From positions 113,248 to 177,247 of the forward strand of contig JBLYPW010000001.1 in NCBI GenBank assembly GCA_048538275.1: a stretch of DNA of 64,000 nt. The letters run 5' to 3'. Below are positions 45 to 40,324 of this stretch, in pieces; the first letter of the stretch is position 1, and the number at the start of each line of letters is the position of its first letter. Both the position numbers and the translations under genes were made by a program. The notes below the pieces were generated by a model. The model was not told the DNA's origin. It saw only the letters and a list, made by a program, of their open reading frames with translations, and did not search any database. Source of the stretch: Candidatus Komeilibacteria bacterium (GTDB taxonomy: Bacteria; Patescibacteriota; Patescibacteriia; UBA1558).

Positions 45-215
45 TAAATTGGCGGTGTTTTTTGATTGATGTTCGAACTTTTTTTGAGCAAAATCCGAAC
101 TCCGAATTTTAAAATCCAATCGCTCGGGCGGGCAAAAAGGAAGGGGGTTGGGGGGAAGGAATTTTTGCCCGCCCTCGCTTTCCGATTCCAATTTGTTTCC
201 GCCGCCGAATTTCGT
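45..215. repeat. att-like site: 10-bp core aaattggcgg (46-55) followed by ~160-bp arm A (56-215); inverted copy of 4277-4446
   Basis: The reverse complement of 56-215 matches 4277-4436 almost base for base. The core decamer recurs at 4437-4446 (rc) and 6177-6186. Confidence 0.8.
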
Positions 216-238
216 GCCAACGAAGTTGGCGCGCCACA

Positions 239-1540
239 TTATTTCTCTTTCTGAATAAAATCTACCAATGCTTCCCTATCTACAATTTTTTCATTTCTCA
301 TAGCAAGATTCTTTAATTTGAACATTTTTGTCTTCACTTCTTCATCGCCAATACAAATGATAAAAGGTATACTTTGCTTTTCTGCGGTTTTAATTTGTGC
401 AGGAATTTTTCTGTTGGTGTAATCAACAGCAACATTTATACCTTGTTTTCGAAGATAACCTACCAGTTCATCTGTAAACTGATCAAATTCCTCTTTCAGA
501 CGACAAATGTAAAGCTTGGTAGTGGATTGATATTTTGGTAGCAAGTCATAAGTTTCTATATAATCACGAATGGTTACATCGCCCATACCAAATCCAACGC
601 CCGGAACTTTTTCAGCACCGAAAATTGCCACCAAATCATCATAACGTCCACCGCCAAATAGTGAACGGTTATTTATAGGATTTGTATCAAACACTTCAAA
701 AACTGTTCCAGTATAGTAATCAAAACCGCGTATCAACGAAGGATCAAAAATATAATTTTTGATTTTCTTTTCTAAAAGAAGTTTTTGAAGTGTTTGTAAT
801 TCTTTTACCCCAATATTTTCTGAAAATTCCTTTGGTATTTCAGAAATTTTTTTGCAATCCAAAAACTTGATCAATTTGTTAGTTCTATCACCCAAAAATT
901 TTTCGGCTTGTAAAATAAATTCTTTTGCTTCGATTTTTTCTTTCTTATCAATCAGCTTGGTTAATTGATAACCGCTTTCTTTTTCTAAACCAAAATAATC
1001 ATTAACTAAGTAATTAATTAGTTTTCTACTATTAAGGCGAATAATGAAGTTTTCATCTTTTGCGCCAAAAGTCCGCATAACATCATAAGCGACAGAAATA
1101 ATTTCTGCGTCCGCTTCAACATTATCAATGCCAAAAAGATCAACATTAAGTTGCCAATGTTCGCGCAATCGTCCGCGTTGCGGTCTTTCATAACGAAAAA
1201 GATTTGGTATTGAATACCACCGCAAAGGAAATGATAATCCTTTTCTTTTATGAGCAATCATACGGGCGATTGTTGGGGTCATTTCTGGTCGTATGGTTAC
1301 ATCTCTGTTGCCTCGATCAATGAAAGAATAAGTTTGTTCGTTTACTATTTCCGAGCCAGTTTTTGCACGATAAATTGCGGTTTCTTCCAAAATTGAAGCT
1401 CCGTATTCAACATAGCCATATTGCTCAACCACTTTTCGCATTGTTGAGAAAATATAGTTTTGCACACCCATATCTTCTGGATAAAAATCCCTCGTTCCAC
1501 GATATGGTTCTGTTGATAGTTTTTGAGAATTATTTTTCAT
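239..1540 (-). CDS. hisS: histidyl-tRNA synthetase (class II aaRS)
   Basis: Motif 2 FRYERPQRGRLREHWQ, motif 3 GGGRYDDL, N-terminal RGTRDFYPED, C-terminal anticodon-binding region; 433 aa. Confidence 0.9.
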   Translation of the reverse strand: MKNNSQKLSTEPYRGTRDFYPEDMGVQNYIFSTMRKVVEQYGYVEYGASILEETAIYRAKTGSEIVNEQTYSFIDRGNRDVTIRPEMTPTIARMIAHKRKGLSFPLRWYSIPNLFRYERPQRGRLREHWQLNVDLFGIDNVEADAEIISVAYDVMRTFGAKDENFIIRLNSRKLINYLVNDYFGLEKESGYQLTKLIDKKEKIEAKEFILQAEKFLGDRTNKLIKFLDCKKISEIPKEFSENIGVKELQTLQKLLLEKKIKNYIFDPSLIRGFDYYTGTVFEVFDTNPINNRSLFGGGRYDDLVAIFGAEKVPGVGFGMGDVTIRDYIETYDLLPKYQSTTKLYICRLKEEFDQFTDELVGYLRKQGINVAVDYTNRKIPAQIKTAEKQSIPFIICIGDEEVKTKMFKLKNLAMRNEKIVDREALVDFIQKEK

Positions 1541-1550
1541 ATAAAATCTT

Positions 1551-2867
1551 TTAACCCTGATGTGTTTTTAATTTTTTGGAAAAAGAATAAAAGTCATCTA
1601 TTTTTATTATATTTTTCTTTCGTCCAATATTAATTTCAGCCATGTAATTGTTATAAAAATTATTTTTAAGAAGAATAAAAACCTTAAATTTTTTTATATT
1701 ATCAGGTTTTTCTCTTATATCTATTTCCGCGACATGTCCTTCTTTCCTTAAAGCATTAACTAATTTTATCACCATTTTATAATCTTTCTTCGGGTTCTCG
1801 CAAGAAACGAATACGCCAGGTTTTTTGGAGGGTAAATTTAAAAGTTTACATTCTTTCAGTTTTTCCATAGTCCCCATATAACCAAATCCAAAACCTATCG
1901 CTGGCAAATTCCTTTCCCCATACATGCTTATTAACCAATCATATCTTCCTCCCCCTGATAACGCACCTAGTTTTTTATTTTTATCAGAAACCTCAAATAT
2001 TATTCCCGTGTAAAAAGAGCCTCGAGCTATTGATAAATCAAGTCTACACATATCGTAAATACCATACCATTTTAAAATCTTTGAAATCTGGGTGAATCTT
2101 TTTAAAATTTGATCGGATTGTTTTGCTATATTTTTATTAACTTGCTTTATCTTTTGTATACAATTGATAATTGACCCGTTTAAGGAAATCATCTTGTATA
2201 TAAAAACAATTTGTTTTTTGGTTAAACCAATGTATTCAAATCTGCTATAAAATTCTTTTTTGCTAATTTTTTCTTTATCATCCACTATTTTAACCGCAGT
2301 ATAACAATCATCTGGTTTCACGCCTGCGAAGAATAAGATATTTTCTAAGAGTTTCCTGTCATTAATACTTATTTCCACTTCTTTGCCCAAACCAAGATTT
2401 TTATAAAGATTTGCGGCACACGCCAATATCTCGGCATCTGCCTCAACGGTATCACGTCCTATTATATCTATATCTGTCTGCCAAAATTCTTTTGCTCTAT
2501 CATTTTTAATTTTATCTTCCTGTCTCCATCGTTTAGATGTATCGTACCAACGAATCGGTAATTCAATTTTTTTTAATTCTTGCACCATCCTAGCTCTCGT
2601 TGGAGTTTGTTCCGGGATAAGTGTAAGATAGTTTTTTTGATTATCAAAAAAACTAAATGTCTGGCTGATTAACCCCTCCGACCAAGGAGGTTTAACTTCA
2701 TACAAACTCCTTCTTTCTATAGATGGGGCACTTATCCTTTCAAAACCGAAGCTCTCTATAGTTTTTTCAACTATATTTTGAACATGCTGCCATTTTATCC
2801 ATTCATCAGGATATATACTTTTAAAACCGTTAATTGATTTTAGATTATTATTACTATTCATGCTCAT
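1551..2867 (-). CDS. HisRS-like paralog with degenerate catalytic motif 2
   Basis: The HisRS fold is recognisable (GGGRYDWL, TLIPEQTPTRARM), but motif 2 reads RWRQEDKIKNDRAKEFWQ rather than the FRYERPQ.GR consensus. Sits tandem to hisS. Confidence 0.7.
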   Translation of the reverse strand: MSMNSNNNLKSINGFKSIYPDEWIKWQHVQNIVEKTIESFGFERISAPSIERRSLYEVKPPWSEGLISQTFSFFDNQKNYLTLIPEQTPTRARMVQELKKIELPIRWYDTSKRWRQEDKIKNDRAKEFWQTDIDIIGRDTVEADAEILACAANLYKNLGLGKEVEISINDRKLLENILFFAGVKPDDCYTAVKIVDDKEKISKKEFYSRFEYIGLTKKQIVFIYKMISLNGSIINCIQKIKQVNKNIAKQSDQILKRFTQISKILKWYGIYDMCRLDLSIARGSFYTGIIFEVSDKNKKLGALSGGGRYDWLISMYGERNLPAIGFGFGYMGTMEKLKECKLLNLPSKKPGVFVSCENPKKDYKMVIKLVNALRKEGHVAEIDIREKPDNIKKFKVFILLKNNFYNNYMAEINIGRKKNIIKIDDFYSFSKKLKTHQG

Positions 2868-3882
2868 GGAATAACTTGATTTTTTTCATAAAATTAACAA
2901 TTTTTTCGTTATTCTCTTTTTTAATTAAGTACCGACCAATAAGAGAAACGATAATCATGCCGGTTACAACTTTCCATCTATAACCAGCATATATATTCCA
3001 AATTTTTGCCATACCAAGCTCCATAAGATATGGCCAAGTAATAATGGCTGTAAGGGCGATAATTAATCCTGTCGTTTTTCCAGCACCAATTTTTTTGGTT
3101 AGGTATTGCATAGCGACAGTCGCACTTCCTATAGTAGAAACTGCTAATGCAAAAATAACAACTAAAAGTAAGATGCCTAAAAACAAAGTTGGTTTAAAAA
3201 ATAAGCCAGTTAGTACAACAAAAGTCATGTATAATCCAAACCAAAAACCACCCCAAAGACTGAGTCTTATTTGGTTTTCTTTTTGCTCAAACCTTTGCCA
3301 CATCATAGGATCGGTGAACACTCCGGTTATAATACCTAATAATCCTAAGGGGAATACCCACTTAATCCCAGCTTCTGTTATGAGCTGTAAATTGGGGTTA
3401 ATCGTAAAATTACTTATTATAATAGAAGAAACTGCCAGCAAGACAACCGCAGAAATTTGTAAAGAATAGTATCCTAAATCAGATAAAACACTTCCTCTTA
3501 AGCCATATTTATAAATAAATAATAAAATAGCTAAAGATAAAAATATAATGGAAGGCACGCTAAAACTATTATCTATAAAATGAAAAGACGCCACATCATG
3601 ACCGCCCCCTAATCCTATAAGTAGGGCCTGCATATTCATAATGATGGCCATCGCCGCAATAAATAATGAAAATAAAATTAAAGGAATAAAATTGATCCAT
3701 TTCTCAAACCCTCTAATTTTTACTTTCATGTAGCCAAATAATGGCATAGCCAAGATATTACCAATAACCCAAACAAGGGCTGGAACTATACCATAAGTAT
3801 ACATAAAAGCTATTGTTGCTATCATGCTTACACCCCAAGACCACGAAGCGCCAAGGCTTATTCCAACTCTGCGGTAACTCAT
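2854..3882 (-). CDS. polytopic integral membrane protein, unknown function
   Basis: About 9-10 hydrophobic helices in the translation; overlaps the upstream gene by 14 nt. Confidence 0.5.
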   Translation of the reverse strand: MSYRRVGISLGASWSWGVSMIATIAFMYTYGIVPALVWVIGNILAMPLFGYMKVKIRGFEKWINFIPLILFSLFIAAMAIIMNMQALLIGLGGGHDVASFHFIDNSFSVPSIIFLSLAILLFIYKYGLRGSVLSDLGYYSLQISAVVLLAVSSIIISNFTINPNLQLITEAGIKWVFPLGLLGIITGVFTDPMMWQRFEQKENQIRLSLWGGFWFGLYMTFVVLTGLFFKPTLFLGILLLVVIFALAVSTIGSATVAMQYLTKKIGAGKTTGLIIALTAIITWPYLMELGMAKIWNIYAGYRWKVVTGMIIVSLIGRYLIKKENNEKIVNFMKKIKLFHEHE

Positions 3883-3951
3883 TTCTGTTATGTTGTCTTG
3901 ACTGTCTTTTCTTTTAAAAAGCTTTTCTAAAATTATATTTTTTTAAAATTA

Positions 3952-4158
3952 TTATTTTATTAAGTCCTCAATTGAAACGCCCAGCGCTTTGGCAATTTCT
4001 GCCATAGTTTGAACACTCGGCTTATTAACTGTTCCACTTTCGACCTTCATAAGCGTTGTATATTTAATATCCGCTTTCTTGGCTAAATCATCTTGGGTTA
4101 AGCCAAGTTTGACACGCATTTTTTTGATATTTTCACTAATTATTTTTCCACTTGTCAT
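3952..4158 (-). CDS. XRE-family helix-turn-helix transcriptional regulator
   Basis: LGLTQDDLAKKADIKYTTLMKVESG...IAKALGVSIEDL is a typical Cro/C1 HTH; 68 aa. Confidence 0.75.
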   Translation of the reverse strand: MTSGKIISENIKKMRVKLGLTQDDLAKKADIKYTTLMKVESGTVNKPSVQTMAEIAKALGVSIEDLIK

Positions 4159-4276
4159 ATAAATAAAGTTTTGGTAGTATTATAGTATATAAGGTTATTA
4201 CCCTTATTGTTATACTACCAAATAAAATGAAAATAATCAAACAAATTTATTGGCGGCGCATTTCGCAAAGCGAAAT

Positions 4277-4566
4277 ACGAAATTCGGCGGCGGAAACAAA
4301 TTGGAATCGGAAAGCGAGGGCGGGCAAAAATTCCTTCCCCCCAACCCCCTTCCTTTTTGCCCGCCCGAGCGATTGGATTTTAAAATTCGGAGTTCGGATT
4401 TTGCTCAAAAAAAGTTCGAACATCAATCAAAAAACACCGCCAATTTTCACTTTTTGTGAAATCGTAAGAAACAGCCTCGGCGCAAAGCGCCTCGGCATGG
4501 TATTTTTCCGCAATTTTGAAGTCATTTTTGAAATCCAAAACCAAAGTGCGGTCGGCAATACGGAAA
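4277..4566. repeat. internal inverted att-like site: arm A (4277-4436) - core (4437-4446) - arm B (4447-4566)
   Basis: Arm A is the reverse complement of 56-215. Arm B is the reverse complement of 6058-6177 and, on the minus strand, encodes the recombinase C-terminal peptide SNFRIADRTLVLDFKNDFKIAEKYHAEALCAEAVSYDFTKSENW. Confidence 0.8.
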
Positions 4567-4684
4567 TTCGCCGTGCAAAGCACGGGCAAAATGAAATTTT
4601 GCAAACCAATCTTTTTTCTTTCGCTTTCAGCGAAAGGTTGAGCGTATTTTTCTTTGATTGCCCAAAAACTAATTTCAAAACAAT

Positions 4685-6250
4685 ATGGACAACATAAATT
4701 TACAAACCAAAAAGATTTTTCTCTATGCTCGTAAATCCACGGACGAACCCGAAAGGCAGGTTTTGAGCATTGAAGCGCAAATGTTTGAGTTGCGGGAATT
4801 TGCCAAAAAAGAGGGTTTGAATATCGTCCGTGAATTTGTGGAAAGCAAAACCGCCAAAGAACCAGGCAGAGAGATTTTTAATGACATGATCGCAAGCATA
4901 GAGAAAAATGAAGCCGAAGGAATTTTAGCGTGGCACCCTGACCGCCTTGCTCGTAATTCCATAGACGGCGGACGAATAATTTATTTGGTGGATACTGGAA
5001 AAATTACCACGCTAAAATTTCCCACTTTTTGGTTTGATCCGACACCGCAGGGAAAATTTATGTTATCCATTGCTTTTGGGCAATCAAAATATTATGTGGA
5101 TAATCTTTCGGAAAACATAAAGAGGGGTATTCGCCAGAAATTGCGAAATGGAATATGGCCCGCTTGGGCGCCACTTGGCTATATAAACGACAAAAACGCC
5201 CGCTGTATCGCCGTGGATAAAGAAAATGCAAAGTATATCAAGCGGGCATTTGAAATGTACGCGACTGGCGAATACCCCCTCGCTCAAATCCGAAAGATTA
5301 TCAATTCCTTGGGCTTGGTTGGCAAGAAAGGCAAAAAGCTTTCCGTCTCAAATTATCAGTATATGCTCAAGAATAAAATCTATTATGGAATGATTGAATA
5401 TAACGGTGAAATGTATGACGGAAAGCATGAACCGATTATCACAAAGAAACTTTTTGATTCCGTTCAAGAAGTGATGGCGAACAAGAGCAAACCAAAATCG
5501 CCAAAACTCAAACCTTATGTTTTTAGAGGATTTTTCCGTTGTGGAGAGTGCGGTTGTTTCATTACTACCGAAACACAAAAAGGACACAATTATTTGCGTT
5601 GCACCAAACGGAAAAATCCTTGCACACAAAAATATGTCCGCGAGGAAATCATCACTTCTCAAATAAAGGAAGAAATCAAAAAAGTTTCTTTGTCTTCCGC
5701 TTGGGCAAACGCTTCAATCAATTATTTTGAAAATGAAAAAATGAAAATTGCCCAAGCGGAAAGCTCTTTCGCCCAAAAAGCGAGAGATGAGCTTGTGGAA
5801 ATAGAAACAAAGCTTGATCGTTTGCTTGATTTACAACTGGACGGCAATTTGTCGCAAGCGGAATATACCGCTAAAAAGCACAAGCTCATTCTCGCTAAAA
5901 AAGATATGGAAGAAAAAATCACCGCTTTTGGGCGAAAGAGCAATAATCGGTTCGAACTTGCCATTGCCTTTCTAAAAGAAGCCAATCAAGCCGAAAAATA
6001 CGCTCAACAAGAAAATCCCGAAAGGATTCGGGATTTTCTCAAAAAGATTGGTTCGAACTTCCGTATTGCCGACCGCACTTTGGTTTTGGATTTCAAAAAT
6101 GACTTCAAAATTGCGGAAAAATACCATGCCGAGGCGCTTTGCGCCGAGGCTGTTTCTTACGATTTCACAAAAAGTGAAAATTGGCGGAGGAGGCGGGATT
6201 CGAACCCGCGATACCTTGCGGTATGCCTGCACTCCAAGCAGGTGCACTAG
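4685..6250 (+). CDS. large serine recombinase (resolvase/invertase N-domain + recombinase domain + zinc ribbon)
   Basis: N-terminal YARKSTDEPERQVLSIEAQ (catalytic Ser region), recombinase domain, CGECG..C zinc ribbon. The 3' end runs through repeat B into tRNA-Ser antisense. Confidence 0.85.
   Translation: MDNINLQTKKIFLYARKSTDEPERQVLSIEAQMFELREFAKKEGLNIVREFVESKTAKEPGREIFNDMIASIEKNEAEGILAWHPDRLARNSIDGGRIIYLVDTGKITTLKFPTFWFDPTPQGKFMLSIAFGQSKYYVDNLSENIKRGIRQKLRNGIWPAWAPLGYINDKNARCIAVDKENAKYIKRAFEMYATGEYPLAQIRKIINSLGLVGKKGKKLSVSNYQYMLKNKIYYGMIEYNGEMYDGKHEPIITKKLFDSVQEVMANKSKPKSPKLKPYVFRGFFRCGECGCFITTETQKGHNYLRCTKRKNPCTQKYVREEIITSQIKEEIKKVSLSSAWANASINYFENEKMKIAQAESSFAQKARDELVEIETKLDRLLDLQLDGNLSQAEYTAKKHKLILAKKDMEEKITAFGRKSNNRFELAIAFLKEANQAEKYAQQENPERIRDFLKKIGSNFRIADRTLVLDFKNDFKIAEKYHAEALCAEAVSYDFTKSENWRRRRDSNPRYLAVCLHSKQVH
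6058..6186. repeat. arm B plus core aaattggcgg directly abutting the tRNA-Ser 3' end (attR-like)
   Basis: Reverse complement of 4437-4566; the core overlaps the tRNA acceptor 3' strand. Confidence 0.8.
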
Positions 6251-6269
6251 ACCACTATGCGACCCCTCC
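6182..6269 (-). tRNA. tRNA-Ser (anticodon GGA), class II with long variable arm, CCA encoded
   Basis: rc = GGAGGGGTCGCATAGTGGTCTAGTGCACCTGCTTGGAGTGCAGG...GCGGGTTCGAATCCCGCCTCCTCCGCCA. Manual fold gives a 7-bp acceptor stem, anticodon loop TTGGAGT, variable hairpin and T-loop TTCGAAT. Confidence 0.85.
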
Positions 6270-12267: not shown

Positions 12268-12723
12268 ATGCAAAAGTTTATTGTTCCCCAATTTATTGAT
12301 GTAGAAAGTAAAATAATCGGGCCTATCACCACTCGTCAATTTGTTATTACTCTAGTGGGCTTATTATTTGGCTTTATTGCTTATAAATTGTCAGATTTTA
12401 CTTTATTTTTTTTGGAGGCAATCATCATATTTGTTATAGTGGCAGCCTTTGCTTTTGTAAAAGTCAACGCCGCTCCTTTTCATGTTTTTTTACTAAATTT
12501 TTTAAAAACTTCTTTTGCTCCCAATTTAAGAGTATGGAAAAGAGAAAAATGGCAAGCGACCGCTAAAAAAGAAGAGGATAAAAAAGAAGATGAGCCAGAG
12601 CATCCGCCGCGTCGTAGATTAACGGCCTCACGCTTATCCGAGCTAGCTTTGATTATAGATACCGGCGGCGCTTATAGTGGTGAGGATATTATCAATTCAC
12701 AAAGTCAAGATAATGAAAAATAA
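12268..12723 (+). CDS. small 2-TM membrane protein (VirB3/PrgI-like position)
   Basis: Two hydrophobic helices. It sits 2 genes upstream of the VirB4 ATPase (13397..15253), with only the 226-aa ORF at 12713-13393 between them. Confidence 0.35.
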   Translation: MQKFIVPQFIDVESKIIGPITTRQFVITLVGLLFGFIAYKLSDFTLFFLEAIIIFVIVAAFAFVKVNAAPFHVFLLNFLKTSFAPNLRVWKREKWQATAKKEEDKKEDEPEHPPRRRLTASRLSELALIIDTGGAYSGEDIINSQSQDNEK

Positions 12724-13393
12724 AAAAGCTAAAAATCAAGGTTTGCCTAGTACGGAAAAATATTTATTTGCGGAAACGGTACGTGACGACACCGTAGTTT
12801 TGAAAAATGGCGGATTGCGAGCAATATTGATGACTTCTTCTATAAACTTTGCTTTGAAAAGCGAAGATGAACAGCAAGGTATTTTGCAAGGGTATGTTTC
12901 TTTGTTGAATTCTATTGATTTTCCTTTGCAGATTGTAGTGCAGTCTCGTCCTTTAAAGATTGATAACTATTTATCAAGCATGGATAAGCGGATGACGGAA
13001 ATTGATAATGAACTTTTACGCGTACAGCTACAGGATTATAAAAAATATATCACTGAGCTTTTAAGTCTAGGTGATATTATGAGTAAAAAGTTTTACTTGG
13101 TTGTGCCCTATGAGCCGGGAGGCGGAGGGGGAAAGAAGAATTTTTGGACACAAGTAACAGAAGTATTTTCTTCTCGTTCCATTATAAATCTTAGTCGCAA
13201 ACAGTTTAATGAATATAAAGATGAATTAGAGCGTCGTGTTAGCTTGGTCATGGCTGGCCTAAATAATATGGGCTTATCATCAGTTCGTTTGGATACGCAA
13301 GGCCTGATTGAATTACTTTATAACAGCTACAATCCATTGATATCCAATTGGCAAAAATTACCAGACATTAATGAGTTGAATTTAGAAAAATAA
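12713..13393 (+). CDS. hypothetical protein, T4SS-associated
   Basis: The ORF track starts at a GTG (12677); an ATG at 12713 (MKNKKAKNQ) is the more plausible start. The size is roughly what the short downstream VirB4 lacks at its N-terminus. That is inference only. Confidence 0.4.
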   Translation: MKNKKAKNQGLPSTEKYLFAETVRDDTVVLKNGGLRAILMTSSINFALKSEDEQQGILQGYVSLLNSIDFPLQIVVQSRPLKIDNYLSSMDKRMTEIDNELLRVQLQDYKKYITELLSLGDIMSKKFYLVVPYEPGGGGGKKNFWTQVTEVFSSRSIINLSRKQFNEYKDELERRVSLVMAGLNNMGLSSVRLDTQGLIELLYNSYNPLISNWQKLPDINELNLEK

Positions 13394-13396
13394 ATT

Positions 13397-15253
13397 ATGC
13401 GTATTCCTAACCAAACTAATAAAATAATGAGTAGTGAGGCGCCGGAAAGTCAATCTCAAGATAAGGAGCTTTTACAGGCAGAAAAAACTTTTCGGGAGGG
13501 CATGACAACGGTGCGAGAATTAGTCGCCCCTTCTAGTATGAAGGTGGATAAAGACAATTTACGATTGGGACAAAAATATGTACGCACAGTTTTTGTTATT
13601 AATTACCCGCGTTATATCAGCTTAGGGTGGTTTACACCGATTATCAATTTGAATGCAGAATTAGACATAGCTATGTATTTTTATCCGGTGGAATCAAAAG
13701 TAGTGCTTAAGCAGTTGAAAAATAAAGTTGGTGCTTTGGAGGCGGAGATAGTAGCAGATTCGGAAAAGGGCGCGCCACGAGATCCGATGAAAGAGACAGC
13801 TTTACGAGATATTGAAAGCTTACGTGATGATTTGACGCAGGGGATTGAGAAATTTTTCCAATTTGCTCTTTATGTCACAATTTATGCCGATAATGTTGAA
13901 GAATTAGATCAATTGAACGATCAAGTAGAGTCTATTATTGGTGCCAAATTAGTAATGTCAAAAAGAGCTTTGTATCAAGCAGAACAGGGTTTTAATTCTA
14001 GTTTGCCTTTGGGTAATGACGAATTGATGATATCCAATAATTTAAACTCCTCACCGGCGGCTGCTTCTTTTCCTTTTATTTCCTCTGATTTAACTTCGGA
14101 TAGCGGCATTCTTTATGGCATCAATCGTCACAATAATAGTTTGATAATTTTTGACAGATTTTCTTTACAAAACGCAAACTCTTGTGTATTTGCAACTTCT
14201 GGCGCGGGCAAAAGCTATGCCGTAAAATTGGAAGCTTTGCGCAGCTTGATGATGGGTACCGATGTTATTATTATTGATCCAGAAAGTGAGTATAAATATT
14301 TGGCCGACGCCGTGGGAGGCACTTATATTAATATTTCTTTAAACTCTGATAGCAAGTTAAATCCTTTTGATTTGCCCCGGGGAGTGGGTGGAGAATCCAA
14401 AGCGGCAGACATTATTCGTAGCGCTATTATCACTATCAAGGGTTTGTTGAAAATCATGCTGGGAGAGTTTACTCATCAGGAAGATTCTTTATTGGATAGA
14501 GCTATTTTAGAAACTTATGCCAAAAAAGATATTGGACCGGATAGTGATTTATCTAATGTGGAGCCGCCGATTTTAAGCGATTTAGAACAAATATTATCTG
14601 GTATGGAGGGTGGTGAAGACTTAGCCCTACGTTTGAAAAAATATACCGAAGGTACTTTTTCTGGTTTGCTCAACAATTTTACTAATGTGGATATGAACAA
14701 TCAGCTAGTTGTCTTTTCGGTGCGAGATTTAGAGGATGAGTTGCGTCCGATTGGGGTTTATACGATTGTAAACTATATCTGGAATATAGTACGTTCGCAA
14801 ATGAAAAAACGTATTTTAGTGATTGATGAAGCGTGGTGGTTGATGCAGCATGAAGACTCCGCCAAGTTTATTTTTGCTTTGGTTAAACGTTGTCGCAAAT
14901 ATTATTTGGGCGTTACTACTATCACTCAAGATGTTAATGATTTTTTGGGCAACAAATATGGTCGCGCCATTGTGACTAATTCGGCTTTACAAATATTATT
15001 AAAACAATCTTCGGCTGCCATTGATAATGTTCAGAAAACATTTATGTTGACGGAGGGGGAAAAATATTTACTTTTGGAGGGTGGCGTTGGTACGGGTATA
15101 TTTTTTGCCGGTAGTAAGCATGCTGCCATCCAAGTAGTGGCATCTTATGCAGAGGATCAAATTATTACTTCCGACCCACGTCAGTTATTAGAAATTGAGG
15201 AGGCAAAAAAGGAATTTGCTGCCGATCAAAAAGCTAAACAAAATAATGCTTAA
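13397..15253 (+). CDS. virB4: VirB4/TrbE/CagE-family type IV secretion ATPase
   Basis: Walker A FATSGAGKSY; Walker B ILVIDEAWW (the DEAW signature); N-terminal LGQKYVRTVFVINYPRYISLGW typical of VirB4. Confidence 0.8.
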   Translation: MRIPNQTNKIMSSEAPESQSQDKELLQAEKTFREGMTTVRELVAPSSMKVDKDNLRLGQKYVRTVFVINYPRYISLGWFTPIINLNAELDIAMYFYPVESKVVLKQLKNKVGALEAEIVADSEKGAPRDPMKETALRDIESLRDDLTQGIEKFFQFALYVTIYADNVEELDQLNDQVESIIGAKLVMSKRALYQAEQGFNSSLPLGNDELMISNNLNSSPAAASFPFISSDLTSDSGILYGINRHNNSLIIFDRFSLQNANSCVFATSGAGKSYAVKLEALRSLMMGTDVIIIDPESEYKYLADAVGGTYINISLNSDSKLNPFDLPRGVGGESKAADIIRSAIITIKGLLKIMLGEFTHQEDSLLDRAILETYAKKDIGPDSDLSNVEPPILSDLEQILSGMEGGEDLALRLKKYTEGTFSGLLNNFTNVDMNNQLVVFSVRDLEDELRPIGVYTIVNYIWNIVRSQMKKRILVIDEAWWLMQHEDSAKFIFALVKRCRKYYLGVTTITQDVNDFLGNKYGRAIVTNSALQILLKQSSAAIDNVQKTFMLTEGEKYLLLEGGVGTGIFFAGSKHAAIQVVASYAEDQIITSDPRQLLEIEEAKKEFAADQKAKQNNA

Positions 15254-15264
15254 TTTATAAATAT

Positions 15265-15834
15265 ATGTATTGGACACGTAGAAAAATGATAATAATAGGA
15301 GCGGTGATTCTTTTGGTCATTATTGTATTGATTGTATTGTGGTTTGTTTTACGTTCCAGCCAACCTAATGATAATGGTTTGAACAATGGTCCTCAAGTGT
15401 ATGACTCTAGTAATGCCGATCAGGTTGTTTTACCCAGTCTGCCCAGCAAGACAGAGGTGTCACCGCTAAGTCAGGGAGCAGCCACTTTAGCGCGTAATTT
15501 TGTTGAACGTTATCTAAGTTTTTCCAATGATGCTTGGGGCTCTAATTTGAGCATTTTGCAAAGCCAGATGTCAGTTGTGATGCAACAGACTAGTGAGCAG
15601 GATCTGCGTAATTGGCAAAACCAATACCCGGCGGGAAGTTTTTATGGGGTTAGCACTAAGGTATTAAGTCAAGAACAGCTTAGCGCGAGTGAAGATTATT
15701 ATTCTGCCCGTTTGACGGTCCAACAAGAAGAGACCGCCGGCAGCGAAGTTAGTATTAGCCGCCATCAGTATGATATTAAAATGCGGCAAGCTCAAGGAGA
15801 ATGGTATGTTAATGATTTAATTAAGGTTGACTAA
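15265..15834 (+). CDS. bitopic membrane protein (N-terminal TM + extracytoplasmic domain; VirB8-like topology)
   Basis: Single N-terminal TM helix followed by a ~150-aa soluble domain. Confidence 0.4.
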   Translation: MYWTRRKMIIIGAVILLVIIVLIVLWFVLRSSQPNDNGLNNGPQVYDSSNADQVVLPSLPSKTEVSPLSQGAATLARNFVERYLSFSNDAWGSNLSILQSQMSVVMQQTSEQDLRNWQNQYPAGSFYGVSTKVLSQEQLSASEDYYSARLTVQQEETAGSEVSISRHQYDIKMRQAQGEWYVNDLIKVD

Positions 15835-16073
15835 TGTCAGAAGATAAGGCAGAGCAATTTAGGGATGAGATGGCTAGTGCCCGGCAGGCTGCTCAGCATC
15901 AATCAGCCACTTCGGCGGCAGTTGATATTGCAAAAGATCAGATCAAGAAGCGCGCCACCCGACAAATATTGATCTGGGTCGGGGGCGTGGTGGCGGCGGT
16001 ATTGCCTTGGGTGTTATTAATATTATTTATCTTAGCTATCATAATAGGCGTGTATAATGAATATATTTCTTAA
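15834..16073 (+). CDS. small tail-anchored membrane protein
   Basis: 79 aa with a C-terminal hydrophobic helix; start codon overlaps the upstream stop. Confidence 0.35.
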   Translation: MSEDKAEQFRDEMASARQAAQHQSATSAAVDIAKDQIKKRATRQILIWVGGVVAAVLPWVLLILFILAIIIGVYNEYIS

Positions 16074-16076
16074 TAT

Positions 16077-17309
16077 ATGATGAACGATCGGACAAAAAAA
16101 ATATTATTTATTGTAGGTTTTGTTATTATTACAATTTTATTAGCTTGGGCTTTGTATAGTTTATTTTTTAGTAGTTCGGTTATTGATAATGTTCCGGTTA
16201 ACAATGCTAATCAGCCGGTTGGCGGTTTGCCTTCTATAAATAATGGTGGGACAAATCGAGTGACGCAGCCAAGTAATAATATTGCTAATCAGAGTGGTTA
16301 TTCGGGTTTGCCATCTACTGGTGTATCTGCTCAGACAGCAAAACCAATAAGCGAGATAACTGACCAACCTGTACAGTCGGTCACAGTTGGTTCACAAGGA
16401 GAGGTGGCTTGGTATGATCAAGGGGATGGCAAGTTTTATAAATTACAAAGTGGTCAGGTACAAAGCATGAGTGATAAAACATTTCCGCAGGCAGAAGCGG
16501 TTAGTTGGTCACCACAGGCTGATAAAGCAATAGTGGAATATCCCGACGGCTATAATATACTTTACGATTTTGTTAAACAAAAACAGATTAGCTTGCCTAA
16601 GGAGATGACTGATTTTACTTTTTCTGGCAGTGGTCAGCAGATTGCTGCTAAGGTAGTTACCGACAATCCTGATAATAATTGGATTGTAACTGCCAATTAT
16701 GACGGTAGCGGATTGCAGTTTATAGAGCATATCGGCGACAAGAGCCGGGATGTACAAATGGATTGGTCGCCAGCTGGCGAGATAATTGCTACTTATCGGG
16801 AGGGCGTGGATTTTGAAAGACAAGAGGTTTATCCCATTGGTCAATCAGGTTCTAATATTAAATCACTGAAAACAGATGGTAGAGGATTTGTCAGTAAGTG
16901 GTCACCGCAAGGTAATTTGATTGTTTATAGCGTGTATAATAGTTTTAGCGGTTATCGGCCGGTATTATACGTGGCGGATATGGGTGGTGATTGGACTGGT
17001 TCTTATTATTTGAATTTAGGATTGCAGAGTTGGCCGGATAAGTGCGTTTTTAATTCTACTAGTCAAAAGTTGTATTGCGCCGTACCTGATGATTTACCTG
17101 AGTTATCCGGTATTTATCCGGAACTGGCCGATGATAGTAGCGATATTTTTTATGAAATTAACTTATCTACTGGCAATAAGCGTATATTACCTCTTGCCAC
17201 TGGTTCGGATAAAGTGCAAGCAACAGATTTGCGTTTGTCTGCTAATGAGGATAAACTATATTTTATTAACAAAGAAACAGGGCGTTTGACGGAAATTAAT
17301 TTGCGTTAG
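16077..17309 (+). CDS. membrane-anchored beta-propeller (PD40/TolB-like repeat) protein
   Basis: N-terminal TM; repeated WSPxGxxI/V motifs (MDWSPAGEIIATY, KWSPQGNLIVYSV, VSWSPQADKAIVEY). Confidence 0.45.
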   Translation: MMNDRTKKILFIVGFVIITILLAWALYSLFFSSSVIDNVPVNNANQPVGGLPSINNGGTNRVTQPSNNIANQSGYSGLPSTGVSAQTAKPISEITDQPVQSVTVGSQGEVAWYDQGDGKFYKLQSGQVQSMSDKTFPQAEAVSWSPQADKAIVEYPDGYNILYDFVKQKQISLPKEMTDFTFSGSGQQIAAKVVTDNPDNNWIVTANYDGSGLQFIEHIGDKSRDVQMDWSPAGEIIATYREGVDFERQEVYPIGQSGSNIKSLKTDGRGFVSKWSPQGNLIVYSVYNSFSGYRPVLYVADMGGDWTGSYYLNLGLQSWPDKCVFNSTSQKLYCAVPDDLPELSGIYPELADDSSDIFYEINLSTGNKRILPLATGSDKVQATDLRLSANEDKLYFINKETGRLTEINLR

Positions 17310-17332
17310 ACGTTGGACCAGGGGACAGCATT

Positions 17333-18496
17333 ATGTTCAAAAAAAATAGAGCAAATAAATTTATCACAGGTGTATTAGCTGGTTTTTTATTGCTGTTTGG
17401 CTTGGTTTGGTTTAGTGCGATTGGGCAAGCCGCTAATGAAGGCATAAAATTTGTACCGCAGACTACTATACCGGGTGTTACCAAAGCTGGCGATACAAAT
17501 TTTACAGTAACGCCGGATACATTAGGAAACTATATTAATGCTATATATCAATACGGCGTGGGTGTTGTTGCAGTCTTAGCGGTGGTAATGATCATGTTGG
17601 GTGGTTTTAAGTGGATATTTTCTGGCGGTAGTGCCGAGCGCATAAGCTCTGCCAAAGGTACTATTACTAATGCAATTGTTGGTTTGATTTTGGTGTTGAC
17701 TTCTTGGTTATTGTTATCCACTATCAATCCGGCCTTAGTTGTTTTCCCTTCTTTACAAGCGCCAAAACCTAATCTTGTAGCCGGCGACTGCCCGATGTTG
17801 TTAAAAGATAATAACTTTGTTCGACAGTGTAGCGATTTTAATAATATAGGAGATTATTTGAAGACGACGGAGAGTGCTAAAACCATTCAAGACTATTGTC
17901 TTGATCAAGACGCGCAAGCGGCCTGCGGATTGCCAAAAAAGCTTTGTTATTGGGATGACGGTGAAAATTTATGCGCCTCCATAGTAGAGAAAGAATGTGC
18001 TACTGCTTCTGATTGCCAATTTAATGATGAAACCTTTATTTGTGAGAAAAAAACTAATCATTGTTCGCTCGGAGTAGAGGGGTCTTATTGTCTGAGGAAT
18101 GACGAATGTACGAGTGAATCCAATTTAATTTGTGCTTTCGGTGAGTGTGTTAAAGACGGAGATCATGGTTTTTTTAATGGAACTTGGAGACCAGAAACAG
18201 AGTGGCAAACAGGAATAGATTGTCCACCCGGTTATGTGGGGGAGACTGATTCAGATTCTCCTGATGGTGGTGGTAATTGTATAAGAAGAGCCCCTCTGTG
18301 TGATATTCAGCAGGATTGTTTTTCTAATTCTGGTGATTATATTGGTTGGACAGATAGCGCTATGACTCTTCTAAAGAATGATTGCGGGACTGAGGGCGAT
18401 GTCAAAAGATGTGATTGCGATTCAGATAAAGGATGTAGCTCAGGGAGATGTATCAATACGCGAAACGGGCAAAATGATGTATGTTATCCAGACTAG
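17333..18496 (+). CDS. T4SS pilin-like N-terminal domain fused to a cysteine-rich extracellular domain
   Basis: Signal/TM segment, then two adjacent hydrophobic helices (GVGVVAVLAVVMIMLGGFKW and AIVGLILVLTSWLLLSTI), then a ~250-aa region with more than 30 Cys. Confidence 0.4.
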   Translation: MFKKNRANKFITGVLAGFLLLFGLVWFSAIGQAANEGIKFVPQTTIPGVTKAGDTNFTVTPDTLGNYINAIYQYGVGVVAVLAVVMIMLGGFKWIFSGGSAERISSAKGTITNAIVGLILVLTSWLLLSTINPALVVFPSLQAPKPNLVAGDCPMLLKDNNFVRQCSDFNNIGDYLKTTESAKTIQDYCLDQDAQAACGLPKKLCYWDDGENLCASIVEKECATASDCQFNDETFICEKKTNHCSLGVEGSYCLRNDECTSESNLICAFGECVKDGDHGFFNGTWRPETEWQTGIDCPPGYVGETDSDSPDGGGNCIRRAPLCDIQQDCFSNSGDYIGWTDSAMTLLKNDCGTEGDVKRCDCDSDKGCSSGRCINTRNGQNDVCYPD

Positions 18497-33808: not shown

Positions 33809-33883
33809 TCCGCGGTAGCTCAGCGGTAGAGCAGTTGACTGTTAATCAATTGGTCGTCGGTTCGAATCCGACCCGCGGAGCCA
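33809..33883 (+). tRNA. tRNA-Asn (anticodon GUU), CCA encoded
   Basis: TCCGCGG acceptor pairing with CCGCGGA; anticodon stem GTTGA/TCAAT with loop CTGTTAA; T-loop TTCGAAT. Confidence 0.85.
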
Positions 33884-35431
33884 TGTGAGACGAAGCGAGT
33901 TTAATGACTCGTTTTTTCTCTTATCTAAGCCATTTTCATGTAGTTCAAAAGTGGAATTTAGACGAGGCATCCATTTAAGTAAAAATTCAAAAGACGGTGT
34001 GCATTTTGTAGCTAGTTTAAGGTCTTTTAATTCAAAGTTCAAAAATATTTCACTTAAAATTTCTCTTTTCATTTCTGTGCTTGTTTTAGGATTTAAATAA
34101 TCTTTTTTAGCATTGAAAGCCAAATCGTGAATAGCGACAGCTTCTTTGTAAAAGTCTATAGTATTGTCATTTAGTTTTTTAATCTTTTTCTTGATTAATT
34201 TTTCAGTTGCTGAATACTCCTCAAACTTTTTATTATAAAATTCAAGAGTTATGTTTTTGTCTATTTTATCCTCATAAATAGATTCTAGCCTTTGTTCTGT
34301 TTTCTTAAGTTCAATATTATAAGTTTTCATTTGTGTTTCTTTGTATTCTTTTTGATCGGCAAAACTATCTTTTAAGTTTTTTTCAAGCCAATTTAAAACC
34401 CTTTCATTTTGAGGTGAAATCTTATCAAACAAAGGTAGTATCATTTCTTCCAAATCTTCCTGTCTAATATACTTTTTTTGAGAACAAGGTTTATATCTAT
34501 TACAATAGCCATACCAATGGCCTTTTTGTTTTGCCCATGTTATTGTTCCGCCACATTCACCACATTTTATTTTACCTTTAAATACTGGTAGGTGTTTGCT
34601 ATATCGTGGAGCATTAATCTGTCTTGTGATTTTACTTTGCACTTTATCAAACAATTCCTCGGTTATTATAGCCTTTTGTTTGCCTTGATATATTTTATTA
34701 TTCCACCTTAATTTGCCACAATAGAAAGGTTCTAATAAAAAACGGTGCATAGAGCTTTTGCCAACAGCTTTACCATTTCTTGACCTCAGTCCTTTGTCAT
34801 ACATAACTTCACATAGCTTTTTAAGCGAATAATTGCCTGTAGAATAAAGTTTAAACATTATTTTGATATATGGAGCCACTTCGTCATTTATGACGTGTAT
34901 TTTGTGTCCTTTTTCGCCTATGGTTTTGTAGCCAATCGGTGGTTTTGTTGGTAGCCAGCCCTCTTCAATTTTAGCTTTTTGTCCCTTTTTAACTTCTTCA
35001 CTTAAATTGTCTATATAGTTTTTTGCAAATAAAATTCTAATACCCCAATTAAGCTTTTCTTGTGATCTGGAGTCTTTATGCATAATGAGGCTATCTTTAA
35101 CTAGGTGAACTTTTCGCTCGCCGTCTTGTTTGAGCCAACTGTCAACTGCAACCATATCTTTAAAGTTTCTAGTTAAGCGGTCAGCTTTTTCACAAACAAT
35201 AATCTTGAGTTTTTTATCTTTTATATATTTCAACATCTCACCGAATTTATCTCGTTGTTTTTCGCCGCTTGCACTTTCAGATATTTTAAAAATCTTTTCA
35301 ATTACTAATTCTTTTTTATAACAATATTCTTTCAAGTATTTTTCTTGAGCAGGCAAAGAATATCCAGTTTCTTCTTGTTCTTTACTAGATACTCGACAAA
35401 ATATTATACATTTTTGTTTATTGTTTTCCAT
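33842..35431 (-). CDS. large serine recombinase (integrase of the inovirus-like element)
   Basis: N-terminal IIFCRVSSKEQEETGYSLPAQ (catalytic Ser), recombinase domain, CGECGG..C zinc ribbon. The C-terminal SDSNRRPID is encoded antisense to the tRNA-Asn T-arm (the tRNA extends from position 33842 to 33883). Confidence 0.85.
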   Translation of the reverse strand: MENNKQKCIIFCRVSSKEQEETGYSLPAQEKYLKEYCYKKELVIEKIFKISESASGEKQRDKFGEMLKYIKDKKLKIIVCEKADRLTRNFKDMVAVDSWLKQDGERKVHLVKDSLIMHKDSRSQEKLNWGIRILFAKNYIDNLSEEVKKGQKAKIEEGWLPTKPPIGYKTIGEKGHKIHVINDEVAPYIKIMFKLYSTGNYSLKKLCEVMYDKGLRSRNGKAVGKSSMHRFLLEPFYCGKLRWNNKIYQGKQKAIITEELFDKVQSKITRQINAPRYSKHLPVFKGKIKCGECGGTITWAKQKGHWYGYCNRYKPCSQKKYIRQEDLEEMILPLFDKISPQNERVLNWLEKNLKDSFADQKEYKETQMKTYNIELKKTEQRLESIYEDKIDKNITLEFYNKKFEEYSATEKLIKKKIKKLNDNTIDFYKEAVAIHDLAFNAKKDYLNPKTSTEMKREILSEIFLNFELKDLKLATKCTPSFEFLLKWMPRLNSTFELHENGLDKRKNESLNSLRLTWLRGSDSNRRPID

Positions 35432-35753
35432 AGATTTTCTTTAATATAAAAAGGGACGGTCGTAGCAACCCAACAGAATAAAGCAAAAGCTATATTTGTC
35501 AGTACGAACCGCCCCTTAATAGGGACAAATATATAATAAAAGCCTTTGCGTTTAATATTCTTAGTTGAGTTGCATTTATATATTATCATACTCATTTATT
35601 TATGCAAATTGCGTATTCTTAATTCTTTAAGCAAACTAAAGTAATCAACAAGTCCATTAGCTATTTCAGAGGCTTCTTCAAAACTTAAATCATCATCAAA
35701 TTCTTCTTTGACGATTAATTGAAATTCAATTATTGATTCTTTAGATAACATTT

Positions 35754-36530
35754 TTATAGGTGATTAAAGAATATACTTTTATCAAAGACACCAAATCTAA
35801 AAGGTATAAACTCTAAGGAATAAGCTTTGTATTCAACTTCGCCAGTCCATTCAGATTCAAATATCTTTTCAAAGACAGGTTTTACAGTATTTAAAAACTT
35901 CTCTAAAAACCTTATAGCCCAATAGCCCATAAGTTCTATGGCTTTTTTTAATGTTTGTGAGTGAAAGAATTTCTTTTTGCCAAAAGTTCTATCATCAAAC
36001 ATATCTTTACTTAAATACTTACAAACATAAGCTCCAATATTATTTACATTATTAATTTCATTAACCCTAATAAAACCCTGTCCCCAAACAAACTCAAGTT
36101 CAGATATTTCCATAAAAGGTAGCCTGCAGAGCAAATGATAATGAACAGCTCCTCTTTTTTGAAACTCAGGTACAGCTAAATATTCAAAGTCAGGGTATTT
36201 ATACAAAATACGCTTAACAAACTGATTAAATATATAATTAGCTTCTTTTAGTGAGGTAATATTCTTAGCAAAGGTTAAAGTCATGAATTTGTTTAATTGG
36301 GGGTTGGCGTTGGTTAATCGTCTTATCTCTGTTTTTGTTCGATTAAGTGAAAATATTGCTTTTTGTTTCTTTATTTCTAATTGCTTGAAAGCATTTAATT
36401 GTATGGGCTCTTTTTGAGTATTATTATTGTTATCTTTCTTTTTATAGTCTCGCCAGACCGGTTTTTTATACTTAAATACTTCAACTTGTTTGCCAGATAC
36501 CACAATTTTGAGATTGTAGGTATTTGCCAT
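35754..36530 (-). CDS. rolling-circle replication initiator (HUH endonuclease Rep)
   Basis: Motif 1 FMTLTF, motif 2 GAVHYHLL (HuH), motif 3 GAYVCKYLSKD (catalytic Tyr-x-x-Lys). Confidence 0.75.
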   Translation of the reverse strand: MANTYNLKIVVSGKQVEVFKYKKPVWRDYKKKDNNNNTQKEPIQLNAFKQLEIKKQKAIFSLNRTKTEIRRLTNANPQLNKFMTLTFAKNITSLKEANYIFNQFVKRILYKYPDFEYLAVPEFQKRGAVHYHLLCRLPFMEISELEFVWGQGFIRVNEINNVNNIGAYVCKYLSKDMFDDRTFGKKKFFHSQTLKKAIELMGYWAIRFLEKFLNTVKPVFEKIFESEWTGEVEYKAYSLEFIPFRFGVFDKSIFFNHL

Positions 36531-36690
36531 AACTGTTTTTCGTTAGATGTGTGGTTATAATCGAGTTAAGATATTGGCGTTATTTTTATATCATTTTAAG
36601 CAATCTTTTTTGCCGTCGGTGCGGGCATTCCCGCCGGACAAAAAAGCTTGCCCTTAATAAAGTGAATTATTAAAAACATGCTTAAAATAA

Positions 36691-37359
36691 TCATTTGTCT
36701 TTTATTGGTATTAGCCCAGTATTATCATTGGAATATTCTTTATTGTATTGGCGATAATATGGGAATTCGGGATACTTGATAAAATTTACCGCTTCATGAG
36801 TGTTGTAGCAGTTGGCTTTTTGTTTATTAAATAAAAAGAACCGTCTTTTAACTGCTCGTCTACGCAGGTTATCATCTTTTAAATCTTGCAGTTCAAAATA
36901 AGAGACCATAAAAAGCTTATTAAAGAGATTTCTTACTTCGGCAAAGTGTTGCCCTAGATCTCTTATTCTTTTATCTATGTTTGAAGTATGCTGAACACCA
37001 GCCCAAATATCTAAAGGGATGATTTGCCCTTTATCATTTTTTTTAACATCATGCCTATGAGCTGAGAATTTTTGTTTAGCAGACGGTGGCATTTCTTGCC
37101 ATTCCCGAGAGTCAAAATATCCTTGGGCTTCATCAATAAATATTTGTCCGCCTTTTATGTGTAGGAGTTCTGGTATTTCAGACCAAAAGAATACCTTACC
37201 TAGTGTTTCTTTTTTTATCTTTTTCTTTTCTATATATGCTGAAAAATCTAGTTTCCAATTAGCATAAACATCATAGCCTTTTAAAAACATAGAAAGCGCC
37301 TGATAAGTCATATACAGAGTTTTACCAGCCCCGGGTTTGCCTGTAATAATAGTAATCAT
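36691..37359 (-). CDS. Zot-like P-loop NTPase (inovirus pI assembly ATPase-like)
   Basis: N-terminal Walker A MITIITGKPGAGKT; Walker B IFIDEAQ; Zot-family arrangement. Confidence 0.65.
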   Translation of the reverse strand: MITIITGKPGAGKTLYMTYQALSMFLKGYDVYANWKLDFSAYIEKKKIKKETLGKVFFWSEIPELLHIKGGQIFIDEAQGYFDSREWQEMPPSAKQKFSAHRHDVKKNDKGQIIPLDIWAGVQHTSNIDKRIRDLGQHFAEVRNLFNKLFMVSYFELQDLKDDNLRRRAVKRRFFLFNKQKANCYNTHEAVNFIKYPEFPYYRQYNKEYSNDNTGLIPIKDK

Positions 37360-37361
37360 AA

Positions 37362-37604
37362 TTATCTAATTAGAGTGGCTAGCTTCATAATCAGGGTAAT
37401 AATAAGTAGGGTCATTTCAATAATAAAGACAGCTAGTAGTATTTTAAAAAGCGTAACCACAGGAAAGATTAAATCTATCTTGGCAATAGTTGGAGTAATT
37501 ACAGCAAAAGCATTATTAACAGCAGTTAAAATACTGCTATCGGTATTTGCTTCAGGAAGTAGGTTAAATATTTTTATTAAGATTGTTTCTAAAGTATCAA
37601 GCAT
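37362..37604 (-). CDS. small hydrophobic protein (pVI-like minor coat, putative)
   Basis: 80 aa made of two or three TM helices, lying between the pIII-like and Zot-like genes. Confidence 0.35.
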   Translation of the reverse strand: MLDTLETILIKIFNLLPEANTDSSILTAVNNAFAVITPTIAKIDLIFPVVTLFKILLAVFIIEMTLLIITLIMKLATLIR

Positions 37605-37609
37605 ATTAT

Positions 37610-39280: not shown

Positions 39281-39342
39281 TGTAGTTTTTATTTAATGCA
39301 AGTTAAGGGGCTAAAAGAAATAGCCCCTTTTCCTGCAATATG

Positions 39343-39616: not shown

Positions 39617-39622
39617 TCTTTT

Positions 39623-40042: not shown

Positions 40043-40047
40043 TGCTT

Positions 40048-40311: not shown

Positions 40312-40324
40312 AAGTTTTGGCTTT

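Follow-up and report, generated by a model that had tools for sequence, protein, structure and literature searches.

We analysed a window of 64,000 nucleotides (64 kb; the whole stretch of DNA considered here) on contig JBLYPW010000001.1 of a Candidatus Komeilibacteria bacterium (assembly GCA_048538275.1), in which a gene resembling that of histidyl-tRNA synthetase (HisRS), hereafter called the paralog, stands directly upstream of a canonical hisS gene. The paralog is itself preceded by genes for a membrane transporter and for a regulator of the XRE family, and the four genes are arranged as an apparent operon flanked by long inverted repeats and a recombinase gene (Table 1). The paralog appears to have kept the chemistry of histidine activation while losing the elements with which a HisRS reads its tRNA, and it probably has a new histidine-related role.

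Table 1. Features of the hisS-paralog cluster and its surroundings, numbered from the first nucleotide (nt) of the window
Feature	Position	Strand	Remarks
Left inverted-repeat arm	46..215		about 170 nt, arms 99% identical; holds a 75-nt hairpin (113-187); core AAATTGGCGG at 46-55
Canonical Patescibacteria-type hisS	239..1540	-	433 residues; starts 10 nt after the paralog stop
HisRS-like paralog	1551..2867	-	438 residues; adenylation site predicted intact; signatures of the G-1 pocket, motif-2 loop and anticodon domain lost
Membrane transporter, LeuT fold (SSS/SLC5-like), 10 predicted transmembrane (TM) segments	2854..3882	-	342 residues; overlaps the paralog start by 14 nt
XRE-family helix-turn-helix regulator	3952..4158	-	68 residues; first gene of the apparent four-gene operon
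Candidate operator/promoter	4170..4222		putative; 18-nt inverted repeat TTTGGTAGTATTATAGTA / TATTGTTATACTACCAAA over a promoter-like site upstream of the XRE gene
Right inverted-repeat arm	4277..4446		hairpin copy at 4305-4379; core copy at 4437-4446
Large serine recombinase gene	4685..6250	+	within 134-nt inverted repeats (4437-4570 / 6054-6187); 3' end reads into tRNA-Ser
tRNA-Ser(GGA)	6182..6269	-	3' end gives the third core copy (6178-6187)

An earlier note on this DNA had reported a HisRS-like gene with a class II core beside canonical hisS, and the searches agreed with it: the open reading frame (ORF) matched Pfam tRNA-synt_His at 2e-33 and also tRNA-synt_2b, and its best PDB match, both by sequence (1e-60) and by fold, was the HisRS of T. 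acidophilum (1wu7). The gene is a genuine divergent paralog and not a plain second copy, as that note had also held. Its product is 31% identical to that of the neighbouring hisS and scored 229.6 bits on the hisS equivalog model TIGR00442, below the curated NCBIfam cut-off of 286.75 bits, with the match ending at model position 361 of 406; the neighbouring hisS scored 358.8 bits, above the cut-off. The HGTP_anticodon domain (PF03129) was found by the Pfam scan in the neighbouring hisS but not in the paralog, and the changes specific to the paralog family, given below, point the same way. The full-length C-terminal domain described earlier is present as an alpha/beta fold in an AlphaFold2 model (mean predicted local distance difference test score (pLDDT), 85.8), but it is 7 residues shorter, lacks the second helix and has lost every signature residue. 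The HisRS-like domain of GCN2 was a weak sequence match (E 3.8e-6). An anti-phage defence component was considered and dropped, as PADLOC gave no matches for the paralog, the transporter or hisS.

The paralog was aligned with its family members, archaeal-type HisRS, the neighbouring hisS product and E. coli HisRS; the numbering of the last follows a presumed E. coli sequence, in which R113, E115, R121, Q127, E131, R259, Y264 and R311 agree with the literature numbering. The histidine-binding, ATP-binding and catalytic residues common to canonical HisRS were invariant in all 16-21 family members. They comprise E86 and T88 (E. coli E83 and T85), R115, E117, R124, F128 and Q130 (R113, E115, R121, F125 and Q127), R282, G283 and Y286 (R259, G260 and Y264), and the peptide GGGRYD at 305-310 (G306-G307-R308-Y309; GGRYD in E. 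coli). D134, at the position of E131, is likewise invariant within the family. Judging from this alignment, the paralog keeps a complete site for histidine binding, ATP binding and histidyl-adenylate formation.

These assignments change how several motifs are to be read. Motif 2, contained in the string RWRQEDKIKNDRAKEFWQ (residues 113-130), had been called degenerate; its functional residues R115, E117, R124, F128 and Q130 are all invariant, and only the loop is altered, by a one-residue insertion and the changes G120 to D and Q118 to K. The string LIPE (83-86) does stand in place of LRPE, but LIPE or LVPE is standard in archaeal-type HisRS, including 1wu7. GGGRYD is the HisRS signature peptide ahead of motif 3 and had been mistaken for that motif, the true class II motif 3 being GFGFGYMG (325-332). 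The motif 3 arginine (E. coli R311) is Gly in the paralog, Thr or Pro in archaeal-type HisRS and Thr in Patescibacteria-type canonical HisRS; its loss is uninformative because both of these canonical types lack it too. Other invariant, family-specific changes near the pocket are a KPPWSEGL insertion, Ser for Phe ahead of GGGRYD, and RYDW.

The non-catalytic, HisZ-like protein envisaged earlier does not fit an active site that is invariant across a family of 47-79% identity. Were the paralog HisZ, a short-form ATP phosphoribosyltransferase, of which it would form the regulatory subunit, should be encoded in another part of the genome, and the NCBI pipeline does call one family member 'ATP phosphoribosyltransferase regulatory subunit'. 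Its score on the HisZ model TIGR00443 was significant yet sub-threshold, at 157.6 bits against a cut-off of 271.65, below its own score on TIGR00442 and below the 188.5 bits obtained by the genuine hisS next to it. In the fold search the HisZ structure 3od1 ranked 46th, far below HisRS structures. The earlier observation that no his biosynthesis genes lie nearby was borne out, with neither hisG nor any other his gene among the scanned ORFs of the window or the called genes in about 150 kb of flanks in relatives; Patescibacteria generally lack amino-acid biosynthesis. HisZ was rejected on the model scores, the conserved catalytic residues and the lack of hisG among the scanned ORFs of the window, and we regard it as highly improbable.

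The tRNA-reading elements gave a different picture. We screened 36 canonical HisRS, drawn from four types, for positions that at least 85% of them share and that the paralog family has fixed in another state. In E. coli numbering these were D13 (Ser in the family), Y68 (Phe), G120 in the motif-2 loop (Asp in 15 of 16 paralogs, in a loop with the one-residue insertion), Y263 (Phe, in a HisA loop with a one-residue deletion), Q372 (deleted, inside a 7-residue deletion) and G388 (Lys), together with the conservative hydrophobic swaps I145L, V268I and V303I. E391 of the anticodon domain is Phe in the paralog, and column counts did not find the anticodon-domain signature set (R/K367, Q372, A376, G388 and E/D391) there. 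The Gly equivalent to G72 of T. thermophilus HisRS is replaced by Q, E, N, C or R in 16 of 16 paralogs and is Gly in 33 of 35 canonical enzymes, and the basic residue equivalent to T. thermophilus R7 is D, N, E or S in 14 of the 15 family members tabulated. The equivalent of T. thermophilus R122 is still basic (K/R126; K in 12 and R in 4). The motif-2 loop is the least conserved stretch of the catalytic core of the paralog (0.67, compared with 0.98 in Patescibacteria-type HisRS).

In T. thermophilus HisRS, G72 and G73 make an enlarged pocket that admits G-1, the G-1 end is bound by R7, R115 and R122, of which R122 binds the G-1 phosphate, the motif-2 loop touches C70-A76, and reading of the anticodon falls to the C-terminal domain (Tian et al. 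2015, PMC4357726). The equivalents of E117 and R124 touch A76 and C74 in the same complex (PMC4357726). Because the altered positions match the G-1, motif-2-loop and anticodon elements, the family-specific changes cluster in both readers of tRNA identity; they thus appear to spare the chemistry of histidine activation. The earlier note had taken intact catalytic residues in a profile alignment as the sign of a simple second HisRS. The residues are intact, but the simple second HisRS is not borne out, the tRNA readers being lost.

Homology searches returned about 24 clusters of paralogs at 55-95% identity, followed by a sharp fall to about 40%, at HisRS of Nanohaloarchaea and Halobacteria. Carriers were found among 185,579 species-representative genomes in six cases, five labelled as lineages of the Patescibacteria group and one labelled only 'bacterium'. 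In a neighbour-joining tree with 100 bootstraps, whose archaeal sample was biased to best hits, the family was monophyletic (100/100), on a long stem, and sister to the sampled halo- and nanohaloarchaeal (archaeal-type) HisRS (100/100). On the reading we prefer, the paralog descends from an archaeal-type HisRS.

A decaying duplicate, an incipient pseudogene or an assembly artefact might be suspected in a gene with a degraded C-terminal domain, located between repeats in metagenome-derived sequence. The ratio of non-synonymous to synonymous substitution rates (dN/dS) between the paralog and seven relatives is 0.09-0.16, that is, about 0.1 over dS values reaching more than 2, and independent studies supply more than 20 clusters with intact paralog ORFs. 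An independent ENA contig of 1382 nt (L008) is 100% identical to window positions 208-1589, covering hisS, both of its junctions and the last 13 codons of the paralog, and the structural model is confident. Decay or artefact is effectively refuted by the substitution ratio, the many independent intact copies and the identical contig, and the paralog is a maintained gene under purifying selection.

The setting of the paralog was compared across ten lineages, namely the window and the related loci L001/L022, L004-6/L023, L007/L024, L014/15, L016, L017/18, L019, L020 and L021. The transporter gene is immediately upstream of the paralog in nine of them, with spacings from a 32-nt overlap to an 18-nt gap, and a canonical hisS lies within 7 kb of the paralog in all ten. 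Through matching lengths of their longest contigs, 11 transporter clusters could be linked to 11 paralog clusters. Pairwise identities across lineages are 47-79% for the paralogs, 61-85% for the transporters and 25-41% for the neighbouring hisS genes, the transporter thus being better conserved than the paralog; its cytoplasmic tails are conserved as well. A tRNA-His(GTG) gene was found within the cluster in three lineages (L007 2904-2978, L014 5309-5385 and L017 1613-1687), and those of L007 and L014 are canonical, with G-1 and C73. The third, in L017, has U at position -1 with C73, and its G-1 would have to be added post-transcriptionally or be absent. Bona fide HutH (694 bits, above the equivalog cut-off) is encoded in the clusters of three of the ten lineages. 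Expanded histidine islands were seen in L007 (3164-10223), L016 (5087-7475) and L017 (193-6666). Extras that recur in relatives are HutH, a histidine-racemase-like gene overlapping a GNAT acetyltransferase gene, and three kinds of hydrolase, namely an M15 dipeptidase (VanX/DdpX-like), an M20 deacylase (ArgE/DapE-type) and an AstE/AspA protein resembling aspartoacylase. None of these extras was found in the window. The setting appears to be an island for histidine acquisition and usage with the transporter and the paralog as its constant core, and the linkage of transporter, paralog and hisS is ancestral. The inverted repeat ahead of the XRE gene is a candidate operator through which the four-gene operon could be autoregulated; Rfam searches for a T-box or riboswitch found none, either at the gathering threshold or at E up to 1.

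The transporter belongs to a small family, with 28 close clusters; a search of 1.84 billion representatives gave 124 members at E<1e-3, and no Pfam family, SSF included, matched it even at E up to 10. Its AlphaFold2 model (pLDDT 74) shows a 10-TM LeuT fold, the core of which is most similar to members of SSS. The matched SSS/SLC5 symporter structures (CHT1, DUR3, SiaT and SMCT1) have 472-659 residues, whereas the partner of the paralog has only about 360 and is 12-16% identical to them. On this model the transporter appears to be an undescribed minimal 10-TM LeuT-fold family that lacks a Pfam model. From the gene context we infer that its substrate is histidine or a derivative. The homologs carry an N-terminal extension of 18 residues (KFLKRK..QD.I) that is in frame at 3883-3939 of the window, where ATA replaces the ATG; translation there would begin either at a rare codon or 19 codons past the ancestral start, at the first in-frame ATG. 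A general link between the transporter superfamily and aaRS-like genes (aaRS, aminoacyl-tRNA synthetase) was examined and discarded, the remote relatives P0149, P0150, P0152 and P0153 having unrelated neighbours or lying on contigs that are too short.

An intact adenylation site in a full-length protein, with a folded C-terminal alpha/beta domain in the model, could belong to a working second HisRS, be it a backup copy, a scavenger of high affinity or a form resistant to inhibitors, that charges tRNA-His by non-canonical recognition. E117, R124 and K/R126, whose equivalents contact A76, C74 and the G-1 phosphate in T. thermophilus, are kept, HisRS is able to charge minihelices with its anticodon domain partly dispensable (PMC4357726), and in L007 the tRNA-His gene lies 165 nt downstream of the paralog. 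Lactic acid bacteria (LAB) offer a precedent in their hdcP-hdcA-hdcB-hisRS2 clusters, which combine a histidine antiporter, the histidine-consuming HdcA and an extra HisRS with catalytic residues and a T-box (PMC4122935, PMC5313534). Both systems join an extra HisRS-family gene to a LeuT-fold (APC in LAB) histidine carrier and a histidine-consuming enzyme, HdcA there and HutH in three of the lineages here, and the hdc clusters lie on exchangeable islands in histidine auxotrophs. The paralog, however, is non-canonical, without the signatures of the anticodon domain and G-1 pocket and with no T-box found, and it shares an operon with canonical hisS; an adjacent carrier (9 of 10 lineages) and HutH (3 of 10) are what the two have in common. 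Its sub-cut-off score on TIGR00442 and missing HGTP_anticodon match also speak against tRNA charging, as do the loss of the G-1 pocket Gly in every paralog and the loss of the motif-2-loop Gly, D13 and the N-terminal basic residue. A known way around a blocked pocket exists in Caulobacter HisRS, which serves a G-1-less tRNA-His, has bulkier residues in place of the pocket Gly-Gly and relies on the anticodon instead (PMC4357726). That enzyme resembles the paralog in its pocket, but it is the sole housekeeping HisRS and depends on the anticodon, whereas in the paralog the anticodon domain is the most degraded part, a canonical HisRS is retained in every genome segment examined, and the tRNA-His is canonical, with G-1 and C73, in two of the three paralog-bearing relatives where it was seen. 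We consider a second HisRS unlikely, although, as the resistance or backup copy that the earlier note had offered as an alternative, it is still a contender.

The pairing of a conserved adenylation site with lost tRNA readers has parallels in EpmA/PoxA, AsnA and the amino acid:carrier-protein ligases, which have an intact class II adenylation core but no anticodon reading, this being lost or absent. By analogy, the paralog could be a tRNA-independent histidine ligase acting on a small molecule, protein or carrier, or could turn its adenylate into a dinucleotide polyphosphate signal, with the transporter moving its substrate or product. The pocket-side changes (the KPPWSEGL insertion, the HisA-loop deletion with Y263F, Ser before GGGRYD, and RYDW) could reshape the acceptor or substrate site, and histidine-racemase-like, GNAT, M15 and M20 genes accompany it in some relatives. 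The known ligases differ in deriving from LysRS, AspRS/AsnRS or SerRS and in having known acceptors; no acceptor gene (a carrier protein, an EF-P-like target or a transferase) is conserved near the paralog, whose constant neighbours are the transporter and hisS only, and the accessory genes occur in a minority of lineages and nowhere in the window. To our knowledge, no HisRS-derived catalytic paralog that does not charge tRNA has been described. A ligase seems quite unlikely.

The reading we prefer, with a probability of roughly 0.4, is that the paralog is a neofunctionalised partner of the transporter in histidine sensing, gating or capture. The transporter would import histidine or a close derivative into cells unable to make histidine, and the paralog, as its cytoplasmic partner, would bind histidine and activate it with ATP, thereby sensing or capturing what comes in, which would tie uptake to the cell's histidine and energy status. 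The supporting facts are the intact adenylation site, the lost tRNA readers, an operon shared with the transporter (mostly with overlapping stop and start codons) and the adjacent hisS, together with the purifying selection on the paralog and the histidine-related genes near the cluster in relatives. The logic would be akin to that of HisZ on HisG or GlnK on AmtB. HisZ, likewise a HisRS-derived paralog outside the ribosome pathway and in histidine homeostasis, is a possible model for a histidine-sensing subunit, but it is non-catalytic and partners HisG, whereas the paralog has a conserved adenylation site, a transporter as its partner and no hisG nearby. The HisRS-like domain of GCN2 is similarly a HisRS-derived sensor module for amino-acid status, but it belongs to eukaryotes, where it is fused to a kinase, and has no catalytic activity.

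Several points weigh against the transporter-partner reading. Adjacency of transporter and paralog may reflect merely the co-regulation of histidine uptake and use, and in L016 the transporter gene lies 1.7 kb upstream of the paralog with a hisS gene between them. Carriers of the SSS type move many kinds of solute, gene context is the sole pointer to histidine in this case, and the remoter relatives of the transporter do not adjoin HisRS-like genes. A pure sensor needs no catalytic Arg residues, and HisZ has lost its ATP site. The tRNA-His gene directly after the paralog in L007 means that its acceptor could still be a tRNA, and the tRNA-touching E117, R124 and K/R126 are retained; two of these three also serve ATP binding. 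A more ambitious version, in which the paralog would be the first HisRS-derived tRNA-free active enzyme or ATP-dependent sensor on a membrane carrier, with adenylate formation gating, trapping or signalling histidine uptake in ultra-small bacteria auxotrophic for amino acids, strikes us as rather doubtful.

The most mobile piece of the cluster is hisS itself. The window hisS belongs to the common Patescibacteria type. Loci L019 and L020 match the window at 95-97% identity in the XRE gene, the transporter and the paralog, and again in the downstream repeat, yet between window positions 1539 and 241 they hold an unrelated hisS of an 'LRYD' type, whose product is 26% identical to that of the window hisS. 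The LRYD-type gene has a G+C content of 0.49 against a background of 0.33 in L001. It brings its own 150-nt leader and terminator (L019 2838-4340; also L020, L021 and L022), with flanks 82-97% identical. This is a precise, ORF-for-ORF replacement of hisS in situ between strains 97% identical in their flanks. Repeated replacement of the neighbouring hisS would be the pattern expected under inhibitor pressure on aaRS genes, and it counts to that extent for a second HisRS. An essential aaRS gene replaced in situ is a clean natural example of xenologous displacement.

The aaRS pair had been described as mobile cargo between recombinase sites. Both the repeats and the recombinase are real: one pair of arms brackets the four-gene cluster, the adjacent pair brackets the recombinase gene, and the three copies of AAATTGGCGG stand at the outer ends of the two pairs, in the layout c-Q-[hisS cluster]-Q'-c'-P'-[recombinase]-P-c. 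Relatives in which no recombinase accompanies the cluster, however, still have the inner 75-nt hairpin part of the repeat on either side of it; in L001/L022 the cluster lies between dnaJ/tRNA-Lys and tRNA-Gly, and in more distant lineages it occupies other contexts again. Because the cluster occurs in these other, recombinase-free chromosomal contexts, the pairing of the two genes reflects an ancestral linkage and not one specific to the cargo. The 75-nt palindromic hairpin (GGGCGGGCAAAAA...TTTTTGCCCGCCC) found on both sides of the cluster is kept in relatives (L001 8429-8555 and 12823-12931), and the assemblies of several relatives break at it. With its cores outermost on long inverted repeats, the arrangement is reminiscent of invertible segments such as the C segment of phage P1, and by this analogy the repeat-bounded stretches may be a pair of invertible segments.

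Elsewhere in the window, another large serine recombinase gene (33842..35431), which shares 29% identity with the first, likewise reads into a tRNA gene (tRNA-Asn) and is followed by a low-GC stretch (0.29-0.32) with genes for Rep (35754..36530) and a Zot-like protein (36691..37359); the region 33809-42400 probably represents an integrated element akin to a filamentous phage or a plasmid. A type IV secretion system (T4SS) set at 12268-18496 comprises a PrgI-family gene, a TraG/VirB4-like P-loop ATPase gene (13397..15253) and a T4SS pilin-domain gene (17333..18496). At 42635-49645, where the G+C content is lower (0.33), genes for an N6/N4 DNA methylase, a ResIII helicase/nuclease, an AAA_15 ATPase and a DUF2130 protein stand in a row, probably forming a restriction or defence island.

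Time and again aaRS paralogs have been put to new chemical uses (HisZ, EpmA, AsnA and the carrier-protein ligases are examples), and the paralog is a variant within this known theme. It is a conserved feature and more unusual than a second HisRS, although in another way than the earlier note had proposed. Literature searches found no HisRS paralog of Patescibacteria and no HisRS-derived non-charging enzyme, hisRS2 of LAB being the sole analogue. Annotation pipelines now label members of the family as histidine--tRNA ligase, HisS family protein or HisZ. A clade of HisRS descent whose active site is predicted to be intact, whose tRNA readers have been taken apart and whose transporter partner is conserved would widen the repertoire of aaRS paralogs, and we know of no described equivalent. 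The family opens to experiment the question of how amino-acid-importing bacteria control or exploit histidine uptake.

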